Translations under genes and position numbers: made by a program
The notes under the pieces: generated by a model
Database searches by the model: none
Told to the model about the DNA's origin: nothing
What the model saw: the letters and a program-made list of their open reading frames with translations, nothing else
In this document: positions 2,827 to 34,336 of the stretch, in pieces
Layout: each line of letters begins with the position of its first letter
Numbering within the stretch: position 1 is the first letter of the stretch
NCBI GenBank assembly: GCA_025453395.1
Contig: JALOQK010000003.1
Coordinates: 82,711 to 146,710 of the forward strand
Reading direction: 5' to 3'
Source: Candidatus Omnitrophota bacterium
GTDB lineage: Bacteria; Omnitrophota; Gorgyraeia; Gygaellales; Profunditerraquicolaceae
Length of the DNA: 64,000 nt

Positions 2827-5189
2827 AAATCACGGCATCTAAGCTTTTTTTAGCCTTTGCAGTGCTTGTTTTATCGGGATGCCTGCCCAATAATTCCAGT
2901 ATTTCTCCCCAAGCCGCCATTTCGCAATCGGAAAAATATTACCAAGAAGGCATCGCAGGATACAAGAAACTTATAGCGGAAGGAAAAGACACAGACAATT
3001 TATATTTTAAATTGGGGCAGGTTTATTTCGGGCATGGCGAATTTGATAAAGCAATAGAGCAGTTTAAAAAAAGCAATAATCCAGAAGCAAGAAAGTATCT
3101 GGGTATTGCATATTTCAACCGCGGAAATTTTGTGGACGCGCTTGATACTTTCGCTAAGGTTGTCTCTCCGGATGACCAGGCCAATTACTACCACGGGTTA
3201 ACCGCGGAGAAACTGAATCTTTTTGACCAGGCGACTTCTTTTTATCAAAAGATCAAGGCGGGCAGGTTTTTACTGGAGGCGCGCTTAAGAATAAGTGAAA
3301 TTGAAAAGCAAGGGCGGGGTCTGAAGATTTCGCAGATATCGCCAGAAATAGCAAAGCTAATTCAGAGGCATCCTGCTCTTGAAAACTATCCTGAAGCAGG
3401 CACCCTTGTTCTTCTCTGCGACGAGAGAGTGCGCATTACCAAGGAGAATACAGAGATTTCCCAAATGCATTATCTGATCCAAGTGTTGAATCAGCGCGGC
3501 AAAGAGGATTGCGCTGAGACGGGCATAGAATATGATTCTACTTTTGAAAAAGTAGAGCTTGAATACGCGCGCACCATTAAACCTGACGGGACAGTCGTGG
3601 ATGTGGGCAGCCGCCATATCCGCGATGTTTCCAAATATATGAACTTTCCGCTTTATAGCAATGCCAGGGTGTATATTATTTCTTTCCCGGAGATTGCTGA
3701 AAACGCGGTTATTGAGTATAAATACAAAATCACCCGCAATAAGCTTGTCAATGATAAGGATTTTGTCACTGCCTATCCGCTTAAAGGCAAGGATCCGATA
3801 TTAAAAGCCAGATTTGAATTGGTTGTGCCTAAAGACAGGCAGCTTAGGTTTAAGATCATCAATGAGCAATTTAATGATTCTAAGGCCAAGCTAGAGCCGC
3901 AGGTTTCACAAGATAATGACGATAAAATTTATTCATGGGATTTTAAAGATATCCCGCAGATCGTTCCCGAACCGGATATGCCTGACGCGGTTAAGATCAA
4001 TCCGACAATTATGATTTCTTCTTTTTCCGGATGGGACAGCATTTATAAATGGTGGCAAGGCCTGTCAGCGGATAAAATCAAGCCGGATAAAGATATATCA
4101 GAAAAAACCTTGCAGCTAGTTAAAGGAAAGAAGACTGCCCGCGAAAAGGCCGCGGCAATATATGAATTTTGTTCTCGTAAAATAAGATATGTAGCCGTAG
4201 AATATGGGCAGGCAGGTTATCAGCCGCATCAGGCAGCGGATATCTTTAGCAATAAATATGGAGATTGTAAAGATAAGGCCATACTTTTGGTGACTATGTT
4301 GCGTTTGGCGGACTTACAAGCCTATCCGGTACTTATTCCCACAGAAGAGCTTTATGATCTGGATAAAGAATTTCCATCGATGATATTTAATCATGCCATT
4401 GCCGCGGTTATGCTGGGCAAAGAAATGATTTTTATGGATCCTACGTGCGAGGCCTGTTCTTTTGCAGACTTGCCTTCCGCAGACCAAGGAAGAAATGTGC
4501 TGGTGTTTACCCCTTCCGAATATACGATCGTCAATACCCCATTGTCTGAACCGCAACACAATTACCTGCAGCAGAAGTTATCCATTAAGATAAATCCTGA
4601 CGAAACTATAACAGCCAAGAGGACAGTAGTTTCTTCCGGCGTATACGCGCAAGCCCAAAGGTATTGGCTGTGGTATACTTCTCCGGAATTGATCGCTCAG
4701 ACCTTGCGGGGGAAAATACAAGGCATATCTATCGGAGCGCAATTAATCGATTATAAGTTTCAAAATTTAGAGGATCTAAGCCTGCCCGCCCGCTTGGAAT
4801 ATGATTTTCGGGGCAGTGAGTATCTGACATTGGCCGGGGATATGCGCATTCTGCCGCAATTTGCTTCGGTGGATGTCTCAATTGTGGCCCAAGAAAAAAG
4901 GATGTTTGATATACAAATTGGGTTTTTAAGCCAGGAAGACGTGGAGTTGGAGGTTGATATCCCTAAAGGGTTTGTGGTAAAATATATGCCTGATTGCATA
5001 AAAAAAGAAAGCCCTTGGTTTGATCTGGACGTGCAATATAAAATACAAAGCAACAGGATCTATTTTAAACAGAGCTCTATTGTTAAGCAAAGAAAGATAA
5101 GCCAGGGCCAATACGGACAATTCAAGAAATTTATTCAGGACCTGGCGCAGGCAATCAAGCAGAGGATTGTACTTGAAAAAGCAAGATGA
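2823..5189 (+). CDS. Lipoprotein with N-terminal TPR repeats, DUF3857-like region and transglutaminase-like cysteine-protease core
   Basis: Signal peptide plus lipobox 'LSGC'. TPR-like 'YFKLGQVYFGHGEFDKAIEQF'. 'YGDCKDKAILLVTMLR' resembles the transglutaminase-like Cys core. 788 aa. Confidence 0.5.
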   Translation: MKITASKLFLAFAVLVLSGCLPNNSSISPQAAISQSEKYYQEGIAGYKKLIAEGKDTDNLYFKLGQVYFGHGEFDKAIEQFKKSNNPEARKYLGIAYFNRGNFVDALDTFAKVVSPDDQANYYHGLTAEKLNLFDQATSFYQKIKAGRFLLEARLRISEIEKQGRGLKISQISPEIAKLIQRHPALENYPEAGTLVLLCDERVRITKENTEISQMHYLIQVLNQRGKEDCAETGIEYDSTFEKVELEYARTIKPDGTVVDVGSRHIRDVSKYMNFPLYSNARVYIISFPEIAENAVIEYKYKITRNKLVNDKDFVTAYPLKGKDPILKARFELVVPKDRQLRFKIINEQFNDSKAKLEPQVSQDNDDKIYSWDFKDIPQIVPEPDMPDAVKINPTIMISSFSGWDSIYKWWQGLSADKIKPDKDISEKTLQLVKGKKTAREKAAAIYEFCSRKIRYVAVEYGQAGYQPHQAADIFSNKYGDCKDKAILLVTMLRLADLQAYPVLIPTEELYDLDKEFPSMIFNHAIAAVMLGKEMIFMDPTCEACSFADLPSADQGRNVLVFTPSEYTIVNTPLSEPQHNYLQQKLSIKINPDETITAKRTVVSSGVYAQAQRYWLWYTSPELIAQTLRGKIQGISIGAQLIDYKFQNLEDLSLPARLEYDFRGSEYLTLAGDMRILPQFASVDVSIVAQEKRMFDIQIGFLSQEDVELEVDIPKGFVVKYMPDCIKKESPWFDLDVQYKIQSNRIYFKQSSIVKQRKISQGQYGQFKKFIQDLAQAIKQRIVLEKAR

Positions 5190-28446: not shown

Positions 28447-30012
28447 ATGCTAAAAATTAAACGCGCATTGATCAGTGTTTCTGATAAAACAGGAATTCTC
28501 GACTTTGCCAAAGTCCTGCAAAGTTTTGGAGTAGAAATTCTTTCTACCGGAGGCACGGCAAAAATTTTTAGAGACAATAATATTCCTGTGCTTGAAGTTT
28601 CAGATTACACCGGTTTTCCGGAAATGCTCGATGGCAGGGTTAAGACTCTCCACCCTAAGATCCACGGTGGGCTTTTGGCGGTGCGTGATAATAGCGCGCA
28701 TATGGAAACTGTGAAAAAGCACAATATCGGTTTGATTGATATGGTGGTAGTTAATCTTTATCCTTTTGAGAAAGTAATTCAAAAAGAAGGTATTCCAATA
28801 GAAGAGGCAATTGAGAATATTGATATCGGTGGGCCCAGTATGCTTCGCTCGGCAGCCAAGAACCACAGGTCAGTGGCGGTTATTTCTTCACCTTTACGCT
28901 ACGCGCAGGTTTCCGAGGAGCTTAAGCGCAGCAAAGGCTTTTTATCAGAAAAGACGCTTCAGGAATTGGGCGTAGAAGTTTTTAAGGTTACATCTTGTTA
29001 CGATTCAGCTATCAATGCATATTTGGGGGAACACATTTTAAATAATCACCAAACATCAAATAACCAATTTCCGGATAAATTAAGTTTGTCATTTTCTAAG
29101 CTGCAGGATTTACGTTACGGAGAAAACCCGCATCAAAGGGGAGCGTTTTACCGCGATCAAAATGCCTGCGTTGGTATTTGCGGGATGAAACAGCTTTGGG
29201 GAAAAGAATTGTCATTTAATAATATTTTGGACCTTAATGCCGCGATAAATATTGTCCAGGAATTTTCCAATCCGGGAGTAGTTTTTATCAAGCACAATAA
29301 TCCTTGCGGGGTAGCGGAAAATAAAAATATCCTGAAAGCTTACCGTGATGCCTGGAGCTGCGATAAATTATCCGCCTTTGGCGGGATCTTGGCAATTAAC
29401 CGAAAAATAGATTTAAATCTGGCTAAATTAATCGCCAGGAGCGGATTTTTAGAATGTATCGTCTGCCCCGGATTCGCGCAAGAGGCAGTAGAATTATTAA
29501 CCGCTAAGAAAAATTTAAGGCTTTTGGAATTCTCCGGGTTACTTGATAAGATAGCGCAAGTTGATTTCAAGAGGGTAAGTGGCGGGCTTCTCGTTCAGGA
29601 CGGCGACGGTAAACTTTTTAATCCGGAAGAGCTAAAAACAGTAACTTCTTTGAAACCTTCAAAATCGCAAATGCAGTCGCTTCTTTTTGCCTGGAAAGTG
29701 GCCAAGCATGTGAAATCAAACGCCATTGTTTTAGTTAAGGGCGCAAAAACCGTCGGTATTGGCGCGGGGCAAATGTCCCGGGTGGATTCGGTATTTATTT
29801 CTACCAAGAAATCCGGCAAGTTAGCCATTGGTTCAGTTATGGCCTCGGACGCATTTTTTCCCAAAGAAGATGCCATACAATTAGCTGCGAAATTTAAGAT
29901 CAGGGCGATCATTCAGCCCGGAGGCTCTATTGCTGATGAGGCGATCATTAAGATGGCAGATAAGCATAAGATCGCCATGGTCTTTACCGGGACAAGGCAC
30001 TTTAAACATTAA
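28447..30012 (+). CDS. purH: Bifunctional AICAR transformylase / IMP cyclohydrolase
   Basis: 'ALISVSDKTGILDFAK', 'STGGTAK', 'VSDYTGFPEMLDGRVKTLHPKIHGG' are near-invariant PurH blocks. Confidence 0.9.
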   Translation: MLKIKRALISVSDKTGILDFAKVLQSFGVEILSTGGTAKIFRDNNIPVLEVSDYTGFPEMLDGRVKTLHPKIHGGLLAVRDNSAHMETVKKHNIGLIDMVVVNLYPFEKVIQKEGIPIEEAIENIDIGGPSMLRSAAKNHRSVAVISSPLRYAQVSEELKRSKGFLSEKTLQELGVEVFKVTSCYDSAINAYLGEHILNNHQTSNNQFPDKLSLSFSKLQDLRYGENPHQRGAFYRDQNACVGICGMKQLWGKELSFNNILDLNAAINIVQEFSNPGVVFIKHNNPCGVAENKNILKAYRDAWSCDKLSAFGGILAINRKIDLNLAKLIARSGFLECIVCPGFAQEAVELLTAKKNLRLLEFSGLLDKIAQVDFKRVSGGLLVQDGDGKLFNPEELKTVTSLKPSKSQMQSLLFAWKVAKHVKSNAIVLVKGAKTVGIGAGQMSRVDSVFISTKKSGKLAIGSVMASDAFFPKEDAIQLAAKFKIRAIIQPGGSIADEAIIKMADKHKIAMVFTGTRHFKH

Positions 30013-30017
30013 GTAAA

Positions 30018-31337
30018 ATGATTTACCCGGAAGCAATCAAATATTTGGAATCGTTCATTAATTACGAGAAAATCCCGTATTATTCTTACAAGGATTCTGT
30101 AAAGTTAGAGCGCATCAAAGATTTTCTTTCCCTTATTGGAAATCCCCAAGAAAGCTTGCGCGTAATCCATGTTGCCGGCAGTAAGGGCAAGGGTTCTACA
30201 AGCGCTTTTATCGCCCAGATATTAAAAGAAGCGGGATTTAAAACCGGATTATACACTTCTCCGCACCTGTCAGACTTCAGGGAAAGAATTCGTGTCTTCA
30301 GCTGTCAGCCTTCAGCTATCAGCCTTCAGCCAAAAGAATTTGAAGGCATGATTGAGAAAAAAGATTTAACGCGCTTAGTTAAAAAACTAAGGCCTAAAAT
30401 AGAACAATACAATAGGATTTTAAAATATGGCCCATTATCATTCTTTGAGGCCTACACAGCGCTAGCTTTTGTTTATTTTAAAGAAAAAAAAGTAGATTTC
30501 GCGGTTTTAGAGACTGGCATGGGCGGAAGGTTAGACGCAACAAATACTACTAATGCCCAAGTTTGTGTGATTACCCCTATTAGCTATGAGCATACGGACA
30601 AATTAGGTAAAACTCTAAGGCAAATAGCAAGAGAAAAGGCCGGAATAATCAAATCCGAAATCCGAAATCCGAAATCCGAAAGTGCAAAACCAATTGTGAT
30701 TTGCGCGCCGCAGGAAAAAGAGGCGTTAGATGTTATTAGAAAAAGATGTATAGATGTTGGCGCAAAGATTTACGAAATAAAGAAAAATAAATTAACGCAG
30801 TTTAAAACTCAACTTTTAGGGTTTCATCAGCAGATAAACGCGAATGTTGCAAAAGAAGCGGTTAAGGCCTTGTCTTATTTTGGAGCAAAAATAAGCGATA
30901 GTAAAATTCGAAAAGGCCTCGCAGGCACTTTTTGGCCGGGAAGATGCGAGGTGATTTCTCAAAAGCCATTTATTGTTTTAGACGGTGCGCAGAATAAAGC
31001 TTCGGCAAAAGCATTAAAAGAAGCTATCAGGGCTAATTTCCGCTATAATAAGTTAATCTTGGTTTTAGGGATTTCACAGGATAAGGATATAAGGGGGATT
31101 TGCGCGCAATTGCGCACTTTAGCGGGTACAGTTATTTTAACTAAATCCAGTAATCCGCGCGCCACAGAACCAAAAGTCTTAGCGCGATATTTTCCTAAGA
31201 AAGATACGCGGCAAACTTCCGGCGTAAAAGAAGCCTTGTGTTTAGCTAAAGAAGAGGCGAAGGAAAAAGATTTAATATTGGTGACTGGGTCGCTGTTTGT
31301 GGTCGGAGAAGCCAGGGAAGATATATTAAGTTATTAA
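30018..31337 (+). CDS. folC: Folylpolyglutamate synthase / dihydrofolate synthase
   Basis: 'HVAGSKGKGST' P-loop, 'TSPHL'. Mur-ligase fold blocks. Contains two in-frame heptamer tandem-repeat tracts. Confidence 0.85.
   Translation: MIYPEAIKYLESFINYEKIPYYSYKDSVKLERIKDFLSLIGNPQESLRVIHVAGSKGKGSTSAFIAQILKEAGFKTGLYTSPHLSDFRERIRVFSCQPSAISLQPKEFEGMIEKKDLTRLVKKLRPKIEQYNRILKYGPLSFFEAYTALAFVYFKEKKVDFAVLETGMGGRLDATNTTNAQVCVITPISYEHTDKLGKTLRQIAREKAGIIKSEIRNPKSESAKPIVICAPQEKEALDVIRKRCIDVGAKIYEIKKNKLTQFKTQLLGFHQQINANVAKEAVKALSYFGAKISDSKIRKGLAGTFWPGRCEVISQKPFIVLDGAQNKASAKALKEAIRANFRYNKLILVLGISQDKDIRGICAQLRTLAGTVILTKSSNPRATEPKVLARYFPKKDTRQTSGVKEALCLAKEEAKEKDLILVTGSLFVVGEAREDILSY
30299..30333 (+). repeat. Heptanucleotide tandem repeat (cagcNNt x5) inside folC
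   Basis: cagctgt cagcctt cagctat cagcctt cagccaa, encoding 'SCQPSAISLQP'. Confidence 0.7.
30654..30681 (+). repeat. Heptanucleotide tandem repeat (tccgaaa x4) inside folC
   Basis: tccgaaa x4, read directly. Encodes 'EIRNPKSES', an apparent insertion relative to canonical FolC. Confidence 0.8.
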
Positions 31338-31365
31338 AAGCCGATGATTGGTAGCGGGGCCTTGT

Positions 31366-31501
31366 CTGTATTTTTGCGGGAACGTTTGCCCCGCCCCAGC
31401 GTGGCGGGGCTGCACTTCGTTCCAGCCCCTCGCTCTCGCTATATGTTTTTAGCGGGCGAACCTTGCCCGCTCGGGGCTTCCAAGATCCCGCAAAAACACA
31501 G
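31366..31501. ncRNA. GC-rich structured element with a three-way-junction-like fold: a 16-bp closing stem encloses two GC hairpins. Candidate small ncRNA or cis-regulatory RNA; strand and family are unassigned.
   Basis: 31366-31381 'ctgtatttttgcggga' pairs with 31486-31501 'tcccgcaaaaacacag' (one mismatch). Hairpin A is GCCCCGCC-ccagcgt-GGCGGGGC (31388-31410). Hairpin B is AGCCCC...AGCGGGC-gaacctt-GCCCGCT-c-GGGGCT (31424-31478). Local GC is far above the window average. The overlapping short ORFs 31344-31547(+) and 31439-31648(-) are probably spurious. Confidence 0.45.
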
Positions 31502-31553
31502 CCAAGCCACCCGCTTAATCAGAGAGTATAATTTTGCTATACTATGAGGAGGG

Positions 31554-32216
31554 GTGATGGAGAAGAAAAGAATAATTCTTGGAGTTTTATTTCTTGTTGG
31601 CGGCTTTGTTATTTTAGTTCTAGTATTGAATATAATAAAGATAAACAAAGCGGAAACTTTCTTAAACAGCCTGAAGGGCGAAATAATTTACGTTAATAGG
31701 GATGGGCAGTATTCAAATGTGTATAAAATATCCGCTAATGGTAAAAATAGACAAATGCTATATCATAATATCGATAGGACGAATTCAAATTGCTTATTTC
31801 CTCAATGGTCATCGGATGGTTCAAGAATTTTCTTCACGGCAATGAGAAATGGTCAATGGAGAACGTTTATCATGGATTCAGATGGTAGCAATGTAGAAGT
31901 AGTTGAAAATAAAGAAAGTTCACTGGTGAGTCATTATTCAAGGGCAAACGACATTATAGTGAAAGCCGGAAATGTGTATTGTGTAGATGATAAAGGAAAT
32001 GAATTTAAAGTATATAGTTTTGATGGTTATGATTACAAATTTAATCCAGGTGCTTCTGAAGCATCATGGAGCCCCGATAAAAAATTTGTTATTTTCCAAT
32101 CATGCGAATATGGTTTCTTAGGAATGTGGGGAGGGTGTAGTATTTTAATAGCAGATCCGGGAACTGCAGAAGTGGTAAAGATAACTGCAGGTAAAGCGCC
32201 TGATTGGAAGTATTAA
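31554..32216 (+). CDS. Membrane-anchored TolB-like beta-propeller (PD40/WD40-like repeat) protein
   Basis: N-terminal TM. 'SSDGSRIFFTAMRNGQWRTFIMDSDGSN' is a PD40-type repeat. Confidence 0.5.
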   Translation: MMEKKRIILGVLFLVGGFVILVLVLNIIKINKAETFLNSLKGEIIYVNRDGQYSNVYKISANGKNRQMLYHNIDRTNSNCLFPQWSSDGSRIFFTAMRNGQWRTFIMDSDGSNVEVVENKESSLVSHYSRANDIIVKAGNVYCVDDKGNEFKVYSFDGYDYKFNPGASEASWSPDKKFVIFQSCEYGFLGMWGGCSILIADPGTAEVVKITAGKAPDWKY

Positions 32217-32249: not shown

Positions 32250-33671
32250 ATGATCAATATGCAGAGTTTAAATTTAAATGATACTATCGCAGCGATTGCT
32301 ACACCTTGCGGAGAAGGCGGGATTGGGATTGTGCGCATAAGTGGTAAAGACGCCTTGCTAGTTGCAGATAAAGTTTTCTCTGCCAAAAGCAATAAGAAGC
32401 CGTCTACTTTTAAGAGTCATATGGTTCATTATGGTTGGATCATGGAAGCGAAAAGCGAAAAGCGAAAAGCGCAAAACGAAAAAATCATAGATGAGGTCCT
32501 GTTGACTGTCATGCGGGCTCCTCGCACTTATACCAAAGAAGATATTGTGGAAATAAACTGTCACGGCGGGATGGTGGCCTTAAAAAGTGTTTTAGATTTG
32601 GTTTTATCCTGCGGCGCGCGCCTTGCCGCTCCGGGTGAATTTACCAAGCGTGCCTTTTTAAACGGAAGAATTGATTTGGCCCAGGCAGAATCAGTGCTTG
32701 ATATTATCCACGCCAAGAGCCAAGAAGCCCTCAGGGTAAGCTTAAGACAACTAAAGGGCGGCTTGTCAGAGAGAATAAATAAAATCCGCCAGGGGCTTTT
32801 GGAATCTTTAGCGTTATTAGAGGCAAATATTGAATTCCCCGATGAGGAAATCGGCAATATTGATAAAGATGCCTTGTTGGGCAAATTAAATGACGCGCTT
32901 GATAAATTAAATAGCCTTATTCAAACTTCTTTCTACGGGAAGATGATGCGCGATGGGATCCACGTTGTTATTTGCGGAAAGCCTAATGCCGGGAAGTCTT
33001 CTCTTTTAAATGCCATTCTTAAAGAAGAGCGCTCCATTGTTACTCCTATTGCCGGGACTACCCGGGATACAGTAGAAGAATTTATTTCCCTAAAAGGGGT
33101 GCCGGTGTGTTTAGTGGATACCGCCGGGCTTAAAGACGCATCCGGTTTGATTGAAAAAGAAGCCATGTCGCGTTCCCGAAAAAAGATAAAACACGCGGAT
33201 GTAGTTTTGGTTGTTTTTGATTCTAGCACTAAACTGAACAAGGACGATAAAAAAATCCTGCGTCAGGCCAACTCCGATATTACAGTTGCGGTTTTAAACA
33301 AAATAGACTTGAAGAAAAGAATAGAAGAGGATGTAATCCGCAGGAGTTTGCCAAGAATAGTGGAAGTTTCCGCGAAAAAAGAAAGAAATATACAGGCTTT
33401 GGAAGAAGCAATTGTGGGGTTGGCCTGTAAAAGACAAGGCTCTTGCCAGGATGGATTTTTTGTTTCCAACACCCGGCACATTCAAGCCCTAAAAGAGGCA
33501 CATAAACTTGTTGCTTCCGCAGTAAGTTCTATGGATAATAATTTATTGCCTGTGGAGTTAGTGGCTCAGGAATTAAAAGACGCATTATCTGGTTTGGATG
33601 AAGTTCTAGGAAAAGATTCAAATAAAGATATTTTAGATAAGATATTTTCGCAATTCTGCATTGGTAAATAA
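32250..33671 (+). CDS. mnmE: tRNA modification GTPase MnmE (TrmE)
   Basis: 'TIAAIATPCGEGGIGIVRISG', G domain 'ICGKPNAGKSSL', C-terminal 'FCIGK' (C[IL]GK motif). Contains an in-frame heptamer repeat insertion. Confidence 0.9.
   Translation: MINMQSLNLNDTIAAIATPCGEGGIGIVRISGKDALLVADKVFSAKSNKKPSTFKSHMVHYGWIMEAKSEKRKAQNEKIIDEVLLTVMRAPRTYTKEDIVEINCHGGMVALKSVLDLVLSCGARLAAPGEFTKRAFLNGRIDLAQAESVLDIIHAKSQEALRVSLRQLKGGLSERINKIRQGLLESLALLEANIEFPDEEIGNIDKDALLGKLNDALDKLNSLIQTSFYGKMMRDGIHVVICGKPNAGKSSLLNAILKEERSIVTPIAGTTRDTVEEFISLKGVPVCLVDTAGLKDASGLIEKEAMSRSRKKIKHADVVLVVFDSSTKLNKDDKKILRQANSDITVAVLNKIDLKKRIEEDVIRRSLPRIVEVSAKKERNIQALEEAIVGLACKRQGSCQDGFFVSNTRHIQALKEAHKLVASAVSSMDNNLLPVELVAQELKDALSGLDEVLGKDSNKDILDKIFSQFCIGK
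32448..32482 (+). repeat. Heptanucleotide tandem repeat (gcgaaaa x3 plus two degenerate units) inside mnmE
   Basis: gcgaaaa gcgaaaa gcgaaaa gcgcaaa acgaaaa, encoding 'KSEKRKAQNEK', an insertion relative to canonical MnmE. Confidence 0.8.
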
Positions 33672-33674
33672 CTA

Positions 33675-33750
33675 GTTTGGTTATTGATGTTTGATTATTG
33701 GTAAGCTTATTTGGTTGTTGGAATTTGGTTATTGATTATTGAATATATAG
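33675..33750. repeat. Second copy of the TTGGTTATTGATTATTGG-type AT-rich repeat (related to 330-400), immediately upstream of folE
   Basis: 'tttggttattgatgtttgattattggtaagcttatttggttgttggaatttggttattgattattgaa' compared with 'tttggttattcggatattgattattggaatttgtttggttattgaaatttggtaattggg' at 330-400. Confidence 0.6.
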
Positions 33751-33778: not shown

Positions 33779-34336
33779 ATGGATAAAAAGAAGATTGAGA
33801 AAGCGGTCCGTGATATATTAGTGGCAATCGGGGAAAACCCTAAGAAAAAAGATCTTTTGGAAACGCCTAAGCGCGTAGCAGAGATGTATGAAGAAATATT
33901 TTCTGGGGTAGGGCAAGACCCGCAGAAGTATTTAGAGGTTCTTTTAGAGCAGAAGCACCACGAGATAGTTCTTTTAAAGGGAATTCCTTTATATAGTGTT
34001 TGTGAACATCATCTTTTGCCGTTTTTTGGCAAGGCGCACGTGGCCTATATCCCTAAACAAGGACGGGTTACAGGTTTAAGTAAATTAGCTAGAGTTGTGG
34101 ATATGCTGGCTCGCCGTCCGCAAGTACAGGAGCGTTTGACTACGCAGATCGCGGAAATCATCATGGAGAAATTAAAACCCCAAGGCTGCATGGTAGTTAT
34201 TCAGGCAGAGCATCTTTGTATGTCCATGCGAGGCGTAAGAAAGCCCGGGACTTTGACGGTAACTTCCGCGGTAAGGGGCATCTTTAAAGAAAATCAGAAA
34301 ACCCGTTCGGAAACCTTAGCTTTGATGCGGGATTAA
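33779..34336 (+). CDS. folE: GTP cyclohydrolase I
   Basis: '[18 protein letters not shown]', '[20 protein letters not shown]', 'QVQERLT' are the FolE catalytic blocks. Confidence 0.9.

Follow-up and report, generated by a model that had tools for sequence, protein, structure and literature searches.

A dispersed, structure-constrained hairpin repeat at the 3' ends of genes in Omnitrophota genomes

The folC–mnmE region and its GC-rich element

The window, meaning the whole 64-kb stretch of DNA that was analysed, is part of a 187-kb JGI metagenome contig from a Candidatus Omnitrophota bacterium and carries a run of genes all encoded on the + strand: purH (28447–30012), folC (30018–31337), a PD40/TolB-like gene (31557–32216), mnmE (32250–33671) and folE (33779–34336). 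The gap 3' of folC is 219 nt long and contains a GC-rich island of 177 nt, 31345–31521, with ca. 60% GC in a genome of 43% GC. Measured in 100-nt windows, the region 31350–31499 has 61% GC relative to a mean of 42.8% for the whole stretch, and the 80-nt maximum at the island, 0.68, is the joint highest in 64 kb – the other peak of 0.68 lies within a 508-aa ORF. The folC stop codon ends 7 nt 5' of the island, and the two are co-oriented. The features of the region are as follows.

30018–31337, + strand: folC, with Pfam Mur_ligase_M and Mur_ligase_C domains; Omnitrophota homologues are named folylpolyglutamate synthase
31344–31547, + strand: spurious 67-aa ORF, no Pfam family and no JGI gene call, start codon in the locus-specific flank
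31345–31521, + strand: whole repeat element, short form, 177 nt; strand assigned from the left and right arm types, the same as that of folC
31345–31381, + strand: left arm, 5' strand of the outer stem P1; inverted repeat with the invariant core CTTGTCTGTATTTTTGCGGGA at 31361–31381
31384–31413, + strand: hairpin P2, GCCCCGC/GCGGGGC at 31388–31410 with closing G-C and U.G pairs
31424–31478, + strand: helix P3, AGCCCC..GC (31424–31433) with GC..GGGGCT (31469–31478)
31452–31470, + strand: short-form inner hairpin GCGGGC/GCCCGC, enclosed by P3
31486–31521, + strand: right arm, 3' strand of P1; inverted repeat with the invariant core TCCCGCAAAAACACAGCCAAG at 31486–31506
31439–31648, − strand: spurious 69-aa ORF, no Pfam family and no JGI gene call
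31557–32216, + strand: PD40/TolB-like gene, a JGI gene call with a weak PD40 match, outside the element

The PD40-like gene has its own ribosome-binding site (GAGGAGG, 31546–31552) and a TATAAT sequence at 31528–31533, immediately beyond the right arm of the element. The gene is missing from the orthologous folC–mnmE interval in all of the relatives examined (L013, L037, L038, L043, L044 and L045; L numbers denote individual loci), which makes it a lineage-specific insertion at the junction where the repeat also lies. A second kind of repeat is found elsewhere in the window. Short AT-rich sequences, TTGGTTATTGA/TTGGTAATTGG, fill two intergenic regions in both orientations. One region, 240–395, lies upstream of a tRNA_bind gene at 429; the other, 33668–33745, is in the gap between mnmE and the start of folE at 33779. 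A common operator is one possibility, a further repeat family another.

The outer stem of the element, P1, is an imperfect inverted repeat of ca. 40 bp formed by the two arms, with two family-wide mismatches, A.C and U.C, between the right arm and the left. A preliminary description, made from the sequence of the window, had drawn a strongly GC-rich island between folC and the TolB-like gene as a 16-bp closing helix (31366–31381 with 31486–31501) enclosing two GC hairpins. The GC richness was confirmed, and both hairpins are present, their helices backed by the alignment of the family. The 16-bp helix is also present, as the inner portion of the longer stem; the extent given, 31366–31501, lies inside the element but is too narrow, the element reaching from about 31345 to 31521. 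It is P2, P3 and the inner hairpin that the family alignment supports, not the single-sequence minimum-energy pairing GGGGCUG/CAGCCCC.

The element folds far more stably than dinucleotide-shuffled sequences. The free energy of the + strand as RNA is −93.0 kcal/mol (z −6.30), that of the − strand as RNA is −99.1 kcal/mol (z −6.79), and folding as DNA gives z = −6.59; in each of the three runs, none of 200 shuffles equalled the fold of the element. Because both strands fold nearly equally well, the folding models suggest that the element is a palindrome at the level of DNA.

The element does not correspond to a known RNA class. Across the whole window there was no match to Rfam 15 at gathering score, and a search of 31200–31700 at E-values up to 10 gave only noise (best E-value 0.23), in agreement with the earlier failure to place the sequence in a known class; the families without a match include the THF and ZTP riboswitches. 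The two overlapping ORFs, already suspected to be artefacts, were confirmed as such – they match no family and have no gene call, and their frame is not kept in other copies: the first half of the copy at L003 is read in a different one. No sigma-70-like promoter was found inside the element. A terminator scan of the element was negative, and neither the window copy nor any of the others has a T-run 3' of its right arm. A CRISPR repeat/anti-repeat reading was also dropped, given the inverted arms, an interior conserved among copies and the lack of an array.

Copies of the element in other Omnitrophota genomes

The arm core, CTTGKCTGTRTTTTTGCGGGA, was used as a query in public collections of MAGs, JGI metagenomes, viral contigs, plasmids and phages. 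The 21-nt core occurs at 15 or more loci in one further Omnitrophota MAG, Prado152, in every case between ORFs. The JGI metagenomes contain 20 stretches with the core, 19 of them related to one another and derived from several genomes; the match at L018, on an unrelated GC-rich contig, arose by chance and was discarded. The related copies are on large contigs (714, 378, 187, 149 and 88 kb) and on many small ones, and several matches are at contig ends, as expected because repeats break assemblies. There was no arm-core match in the viral contigs, plasmids or phages. The search of the literature found no paper on repeats in Omnitrophota.

A covariance model built from 18 copies was run on 298 kb and matched the sense strand 23 times with more than 90 bits. 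In the window it has a single match, 31348–31520, scoring 183.6 bits on the + strand (48.8 bits on the − strand). The arm pattern, a repeat finder and the covariance model all failed to find a second copy in the 84 kb of this genome that were examined (the 64-kb window and 20 kb of the same contig). The window copy is 96–97% identical to those at L010 and L028, and over 77 nt it matches those at L003 and L005 without a difference; the adjoining purH-folC DNA is just 69% identical to the Prado152 orthologue, L013.

Copies of the family are ca. 115–210 nt in length and non-coding, with two inverted arms of ca. 35 nt around a variable, GC-rich hairpin cargo. The arm cores, of 20–21 nt, are invariant across genomes in the 18 aligned copies. 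The left arm has the consensus ...(A)GTTTCGCGTGTGTCTTGTCTGTATTTTTGCGGGAAC and the right arm GATCCCGCAAAAACACAGCCAAGCC.C.CGCTAAGCAAGT, and in all paired copies the two arms differ in the same way, T..A on the left and G..G on the right, which gives the A.C and U.C mismatches of the stem. The short form is found in the window, L010 and L028. The long form has an extra 11-bp helix, P4 (CCCGCAGCCGG/CCGGCUGCGGG), inserted within the P3 region, while L002 has a form of 113 nt, and the left arms of L013, L015 and L040 are variants. There are also truncated single arms, and composites in which the element is joined to other GC-rich palindromic modules. By analogy with the BIMEs of other bacteria, the family can be described as a BIME-like mosaic.

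Palindromic modules of other types lie beside the element at L008 (5826–5917), L009 (560–620), L030 (1620–1850), L013 (4080–4125) and L015 (4353–4395), and in the right flanks of L025, L031 and L032. Examples are ATGAATCTG.CGC.TTTTC.CGCTCAG.GTCGATTTTGCCCCGCC...GGCGGGGCAAAATCGAC...CAGATTCAT and hairpins of the type GCGGGTGRC...GGACCCGC. With several such module families beside the element, these genomes carry a mosaic of several repeat types.

A four-helix structure (P1, P2 and P3, the last enclosing P4), comprising 51 base pairs, was tested on the alignment of 18 copies. Standard pairs make up 94.2% of the cells, as against 38–48% when the partners are slid by 1–3 columns; 19 of the 51 pairs have changed on both sides (6–8 in the slid controls), and the covariation score is 0.183 (0.04–0.07 in the slid controls). 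None of 500 shuffles reached the observed percentage paired, number of both-side changes or covariation score.

Compensatory substitutions maintain all four helices. In P2, 99% of the cells are paired and five of the nine pairs have changed on both sides, with the compensatory variants GTTTTGC/GCAAAAC, GCTGCGG/CCGCAGC and GTCCCGC/GCGGGAC in other copies. The P3 pairing AGCCCC/GGGGCT becomes GGCCTT/AAGGCC in L017, and a C-G pair in its extension becomes U-A in L025 and L031. In P4, GCAGCCGG/CCGGCTGC is replaced by CAAGCTGG/CCAGCTTG, GCAGACGG/CCGTCTGC or GTATTCGG/CCGAATGC. Towards the outer end of P1, too, the two strands have changed together, as in ATGGTTG/CAACCAT of L033 and L024. The junction-like, multi-helix drawing of the preliminary description was therefore essentially right, as was its view that this is a genuine structured element: the check for covariation among homologues that it proposed finds the same element in related genomes, with its helices kept by compensatory changes. 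On the sense strand there are 24 G.U cells and 6 A.C cells; a single position supplies 12 of the 24, and the excess favours the sense strand as the strand of function only weakly.

Copies are not placed at random relative to genes. Of 26 left arms, 18 have, 0–45 nt upstream (mostly 0–20 nt), the end of an ORF of 90 aa or more on the same strand. Only 3 of 22 right arms follow such an ORF, and those three ORFs look spurious (Fisher p = 1.3e-4 relative to the left arms). The exceptions are arms at contig starts, nested copies, and the loci L006 and L027, in which the element faces a divergent gene. The upstream genes are mutually unrelated; by eye they include folC, a gene with an LPG_synthase_C domain and a PIN-domain toxin. 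Since the left arm is normally within ca. 20 nt of a co-oriented stop codon, a copy is expected to lie in the 3' UTR or the intercistronic part of an mRNA. In none of the loci do gene strand and GC skew disagree, so that orientation biases linked to transcription and to replication are confounded.

A gene lies between two copies at L003 and at L019. At L003, a 236-aa ORF containing an EREWR motif has an inverted pair of copies around it (12–217 and 1530–1733), in an arrangement like that of a composite transposon; by eye the ORF is possibly abortive-infection-like, and not transposase-like. At L019, copies in direct orientation (3625–3831 and 4683–4830) bracket a gene that, by eye, seems to encode a PIN-domain (VapC-like) toxin, and every small gene in that stretch has a copy of the repeat 3' of it.

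The ancestral order of the genes around the window copy is fusA-ychF-purH-folC-mnmE-folE, with folC overlapping or abutting mnmE. The folC–mnmE junction is filled in the window, in Prado152 (L013) and in L040, the last two with a variant left arm. L038 has a remnant of the end of a right arm at this junction, and in the close relatives L037, L043 and L045 the junction is empty and the genes overlap. The FolC of the empty L045 is 73–74% identical to those of the filled L013 and L040 and falls inside their cluster, which makes the occupancy patchy; that of the window is ca. 67% identical to all of them, and the window copy is probably an independent arrival. At a second junction, 3' of the LPG_synthase_C gene, L008 (Prado152) and L021 have a copy, and the window, at about 2153, has none. 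Comparison of these junctions indicates that copies have been gained or lost between related genomes. In L008, a composite copy of the repeat is accompanied by a 1.5-kb insertion (L008 4540–5830, corresponding to 2056–2151 of the window), which by eye contains an ORF6N/KilA-N-like ORF and an unknown 204-aa ORF.

Nature of the element

The element is multi-copy, dispersed, non-coding and constrained in structure, and it lies in the 3' regions of genes in one orientation. We consider it probable that it is an undescribed, non-autonomous, hairpin-forming interspersed repeat of an Omnitrophota clade, transcribed as part of 3' UTRs. As such it would spread, or would once have spread, as a non-autonomous unit. 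By analogy with the RAYT enzymes that act on REPINs (Y1/HUH transposases whose single-copy gene is flanked by the repeats) and the transposases that act on MITEs, a trans-acting enzyme may recognise the folded arms in single-stranded DNA. In the transcript of the upstream gene, the stem of ca. 40 bp could act as a barrier to 3' exonucleases, as a processing site for RNase III, or as a partial terminator independent of a U-tract. In the window, the stem has folC on one side and, on the other, the promoter-like TATAAT that precedes the inserted PD40-like gene.

Candidates for the enzyme were sought around the copies. No ORF with the Y..NPV signature of RAYT was found with a signature regular expression in the 349 kb examined, and an all-against-all BLAST of the same 349 kb found no recurrent ORF beside the copies. 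Within 36 loci with 8-kb flanks there is no autonomous parent IS with the same ends, and no large repeated segment links the copies. Inspection by eye found no transposase in the ORF between the two L003 copies or in the L008 insertion. When the flanks of 18 copies were aligned, no consistent direct repeat indicative of a target-site duplication was seen; the ends merge into the stem. With a single copy in 84 kb, any activity of the family in the genome of the window is hypothetical.

The invariance of the arm cores across genomes that are ca. 30% diverged could also mean a sequence-specific function at the level of the host rather than mobility. Selection would then act on the RNA: as a structured module in the 3' UTRs or intercistronic regions of many operons, the element would control the stability, processing or termination of their mRNAs, and its mobility would be secondary or extinct. 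The compensatory changes in four helices, the strong bias in orientation and toward stop codons, the mild excess of G.U over A.C on the sense strand, and the occupation of the folC 3' end in three genomes are all consistent with a module of this kind, as is the retention of the arm cores and the two stem mismatches in genomes with ca. 67% FolC identity. However, the same features are known for selfish REPINs, and a function for the host is harder to reconcile with patchy occupancy in close relatives, where L045 has no element and overlapping genes, with a cargo that varies widely, with truncated single arms, with the single copy in 84 kb of the window's genome, and with two strands that fold equally well. 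We regard a host function of this kind as unlikely.

A tentative proposal along related lines is that the element is a domesticated, orientation-specific 3'-UTR RNA module whose arm cores and mismatches are read by a dedicated host factor. This factor would be an RNase or RNA-binding protein, or else a hairpin-specific recombinase unrelated to RAYT, which places or retains the module after stop codons. It would explain the presence of the element, nearly identical in sequence, at the same gene junctions of different genera. We give this proposal little weight.

A plain intrinsic terminator or a small protein-coding ORF might be expected from a GC-rich hairpin straight after a stop codon, overlapped by ORFs of 67 and 69 aa. 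But the stem has no U-tract at its 3' side and was negative in the terminator scan, and 177 nt with four helices far exceeds what a terminator needs; as for the ORFs, there is no family match, gene call or conserved frame, and the substitutions compensate for one another in pairs and are not codon-like. This explanation is very improbable, although a terminator role would be compatible with the interspersed repeat as a secondary function.

The preliminary description had proposed a novel ncRNA or cis-regulator next to purH-folC, with a topology typical of riboswitches or small structured RNAs. Taken further, this would be a regulatory RNA or riboswitch of this one locus, acting on the folate and one-carbon genes purH-folC or on the PD40-like gene. 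The single-locus part of that reading does not hold for a dispersed repeat found after various unrelated genes in four or more further genomes of Omnitrophota, and the riboswitch, which has its adjacency to folC (repeated in Prado152 and L040) and its junction-like fold to recommend it, is hardly tenable for an element that lies 3' of folC and not in a 5' leader, follows many unrelated genes, is absent from three relatives in which folC and mnmE leave no intergenic space, accompanies the PD40-like gene in none of the other filled loci, and matches neither THF, ZTP nor any other Rfam family.

Recognising the element as a repeat removes a folate-linked riboswitch as a false lead and adds a previously unreported repeat family, supported by covariation, to what is described for an uncultivated phylum. 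There are practical consequences as well: repeats of this kind break assemblies, their GC richness yields spurious ORF calls, and the covariance model can be used to mask or annotate the element in Omnitrophota MAGs. If a cognate enzyme exists, this would be a REPIN-like system outside the Proteobacteria with an unusual placement, oriented and close to stop codons. That placement, the invariance of the arm cores across genera, and a host phylum with no described examples in the literature searched are the main points of interest.

Comparison with known repeats and recombination sites

The attC sites of integrons share several features with the element – an imperfect palindrome with conserved unpaired bases, a position right after the stop codon of an ORF, a fixed orientation, and a structure that is kept more than the inner sequence. 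An integron attC reading was dropped because of the end sequences, the lack of intI or a cassette array, and the housekeeping synteny: the ends, (A)GTTTCGCG...CGCTAAGCAAGT, contain no RYYYAAC/GTTRRRY core sites, there is no integrase, and the neighbours are the syntenic genes fusA-ychF-purH-folC-mnmE-folE.

REPINs have invariant ends and a spacer that forms a hairpin in single-stranded DNA or mRNA, in which compensatory changes are common (PMC3116915). In the same description, their distribution over extragenic space is random, and they are accompanied by a RAYT (PMC3116915). The element has the same plan, with two conserved inverted ends (31345–31381 and 31486–31521 in the window; 18 copies) and a spacer that together form a long hairpin, compensatory changes in 19 of 51 pairs, and a small GC-rich palindrome beside each arm core, P2 on the left and GCGGGC/GCCCGC on the right. 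It is likewise extragenic and multi-copy in Prado152, with at least 15 loci, and has one copy in 84 kb of the window's genome. Single arms occur as apparent remnants, and copies persist at orthologous sites, as for REPINs. The element differs in being larger, with a core of 146–180 nt compared to about 70–110 nt, and in having a modular, multi-helix interior and arms that are not palindromic REPs. Unlike REPINs, which are random in extragenic space, it has an orientation strongly tied to the upstream gene, and no RAYT was found beside it in 349 kb. Omnitrophota is not a phylum with REPINs described in the literature found.

The BIMEs of E. coli are mosaics of alternating palindromic units and short motifs that lie between co-directional genes and at the 3' ends of genes. 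The element is similarly a mosaic 3' of genes, with an expected action on the 3' ends of mRNAs. Its sequence is unrelated to that of BIMEs, however, and its outer stem far exceeds theirs in length.

MITEs with long terminal inverted repeats include the Correia elements of Neisseria and the ERIC sequences of enterobacteria, which are co-transcribed with neighbouring genes. The element resembles these in its length of 100–200 nt, its terminal inverted repeats and its lack of coding capacity. Its long double-stranded RNA stem would be a plausible substrate for RNase III, and its short and long forms differ by internal indels, as in MITEs. In contrast to MITEs, the element has no recognisable target-site duplication in the flanks of 18 copies and no parent IS in the 36 loci with 8-kb flanks, its internal hairpins covary, and its orientation is strongly biased. 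Taken by analogy, the element appears to belong with the interspersed hairpin repeats of the REPIN, BIME and MITE type, to which it is similar in kind.
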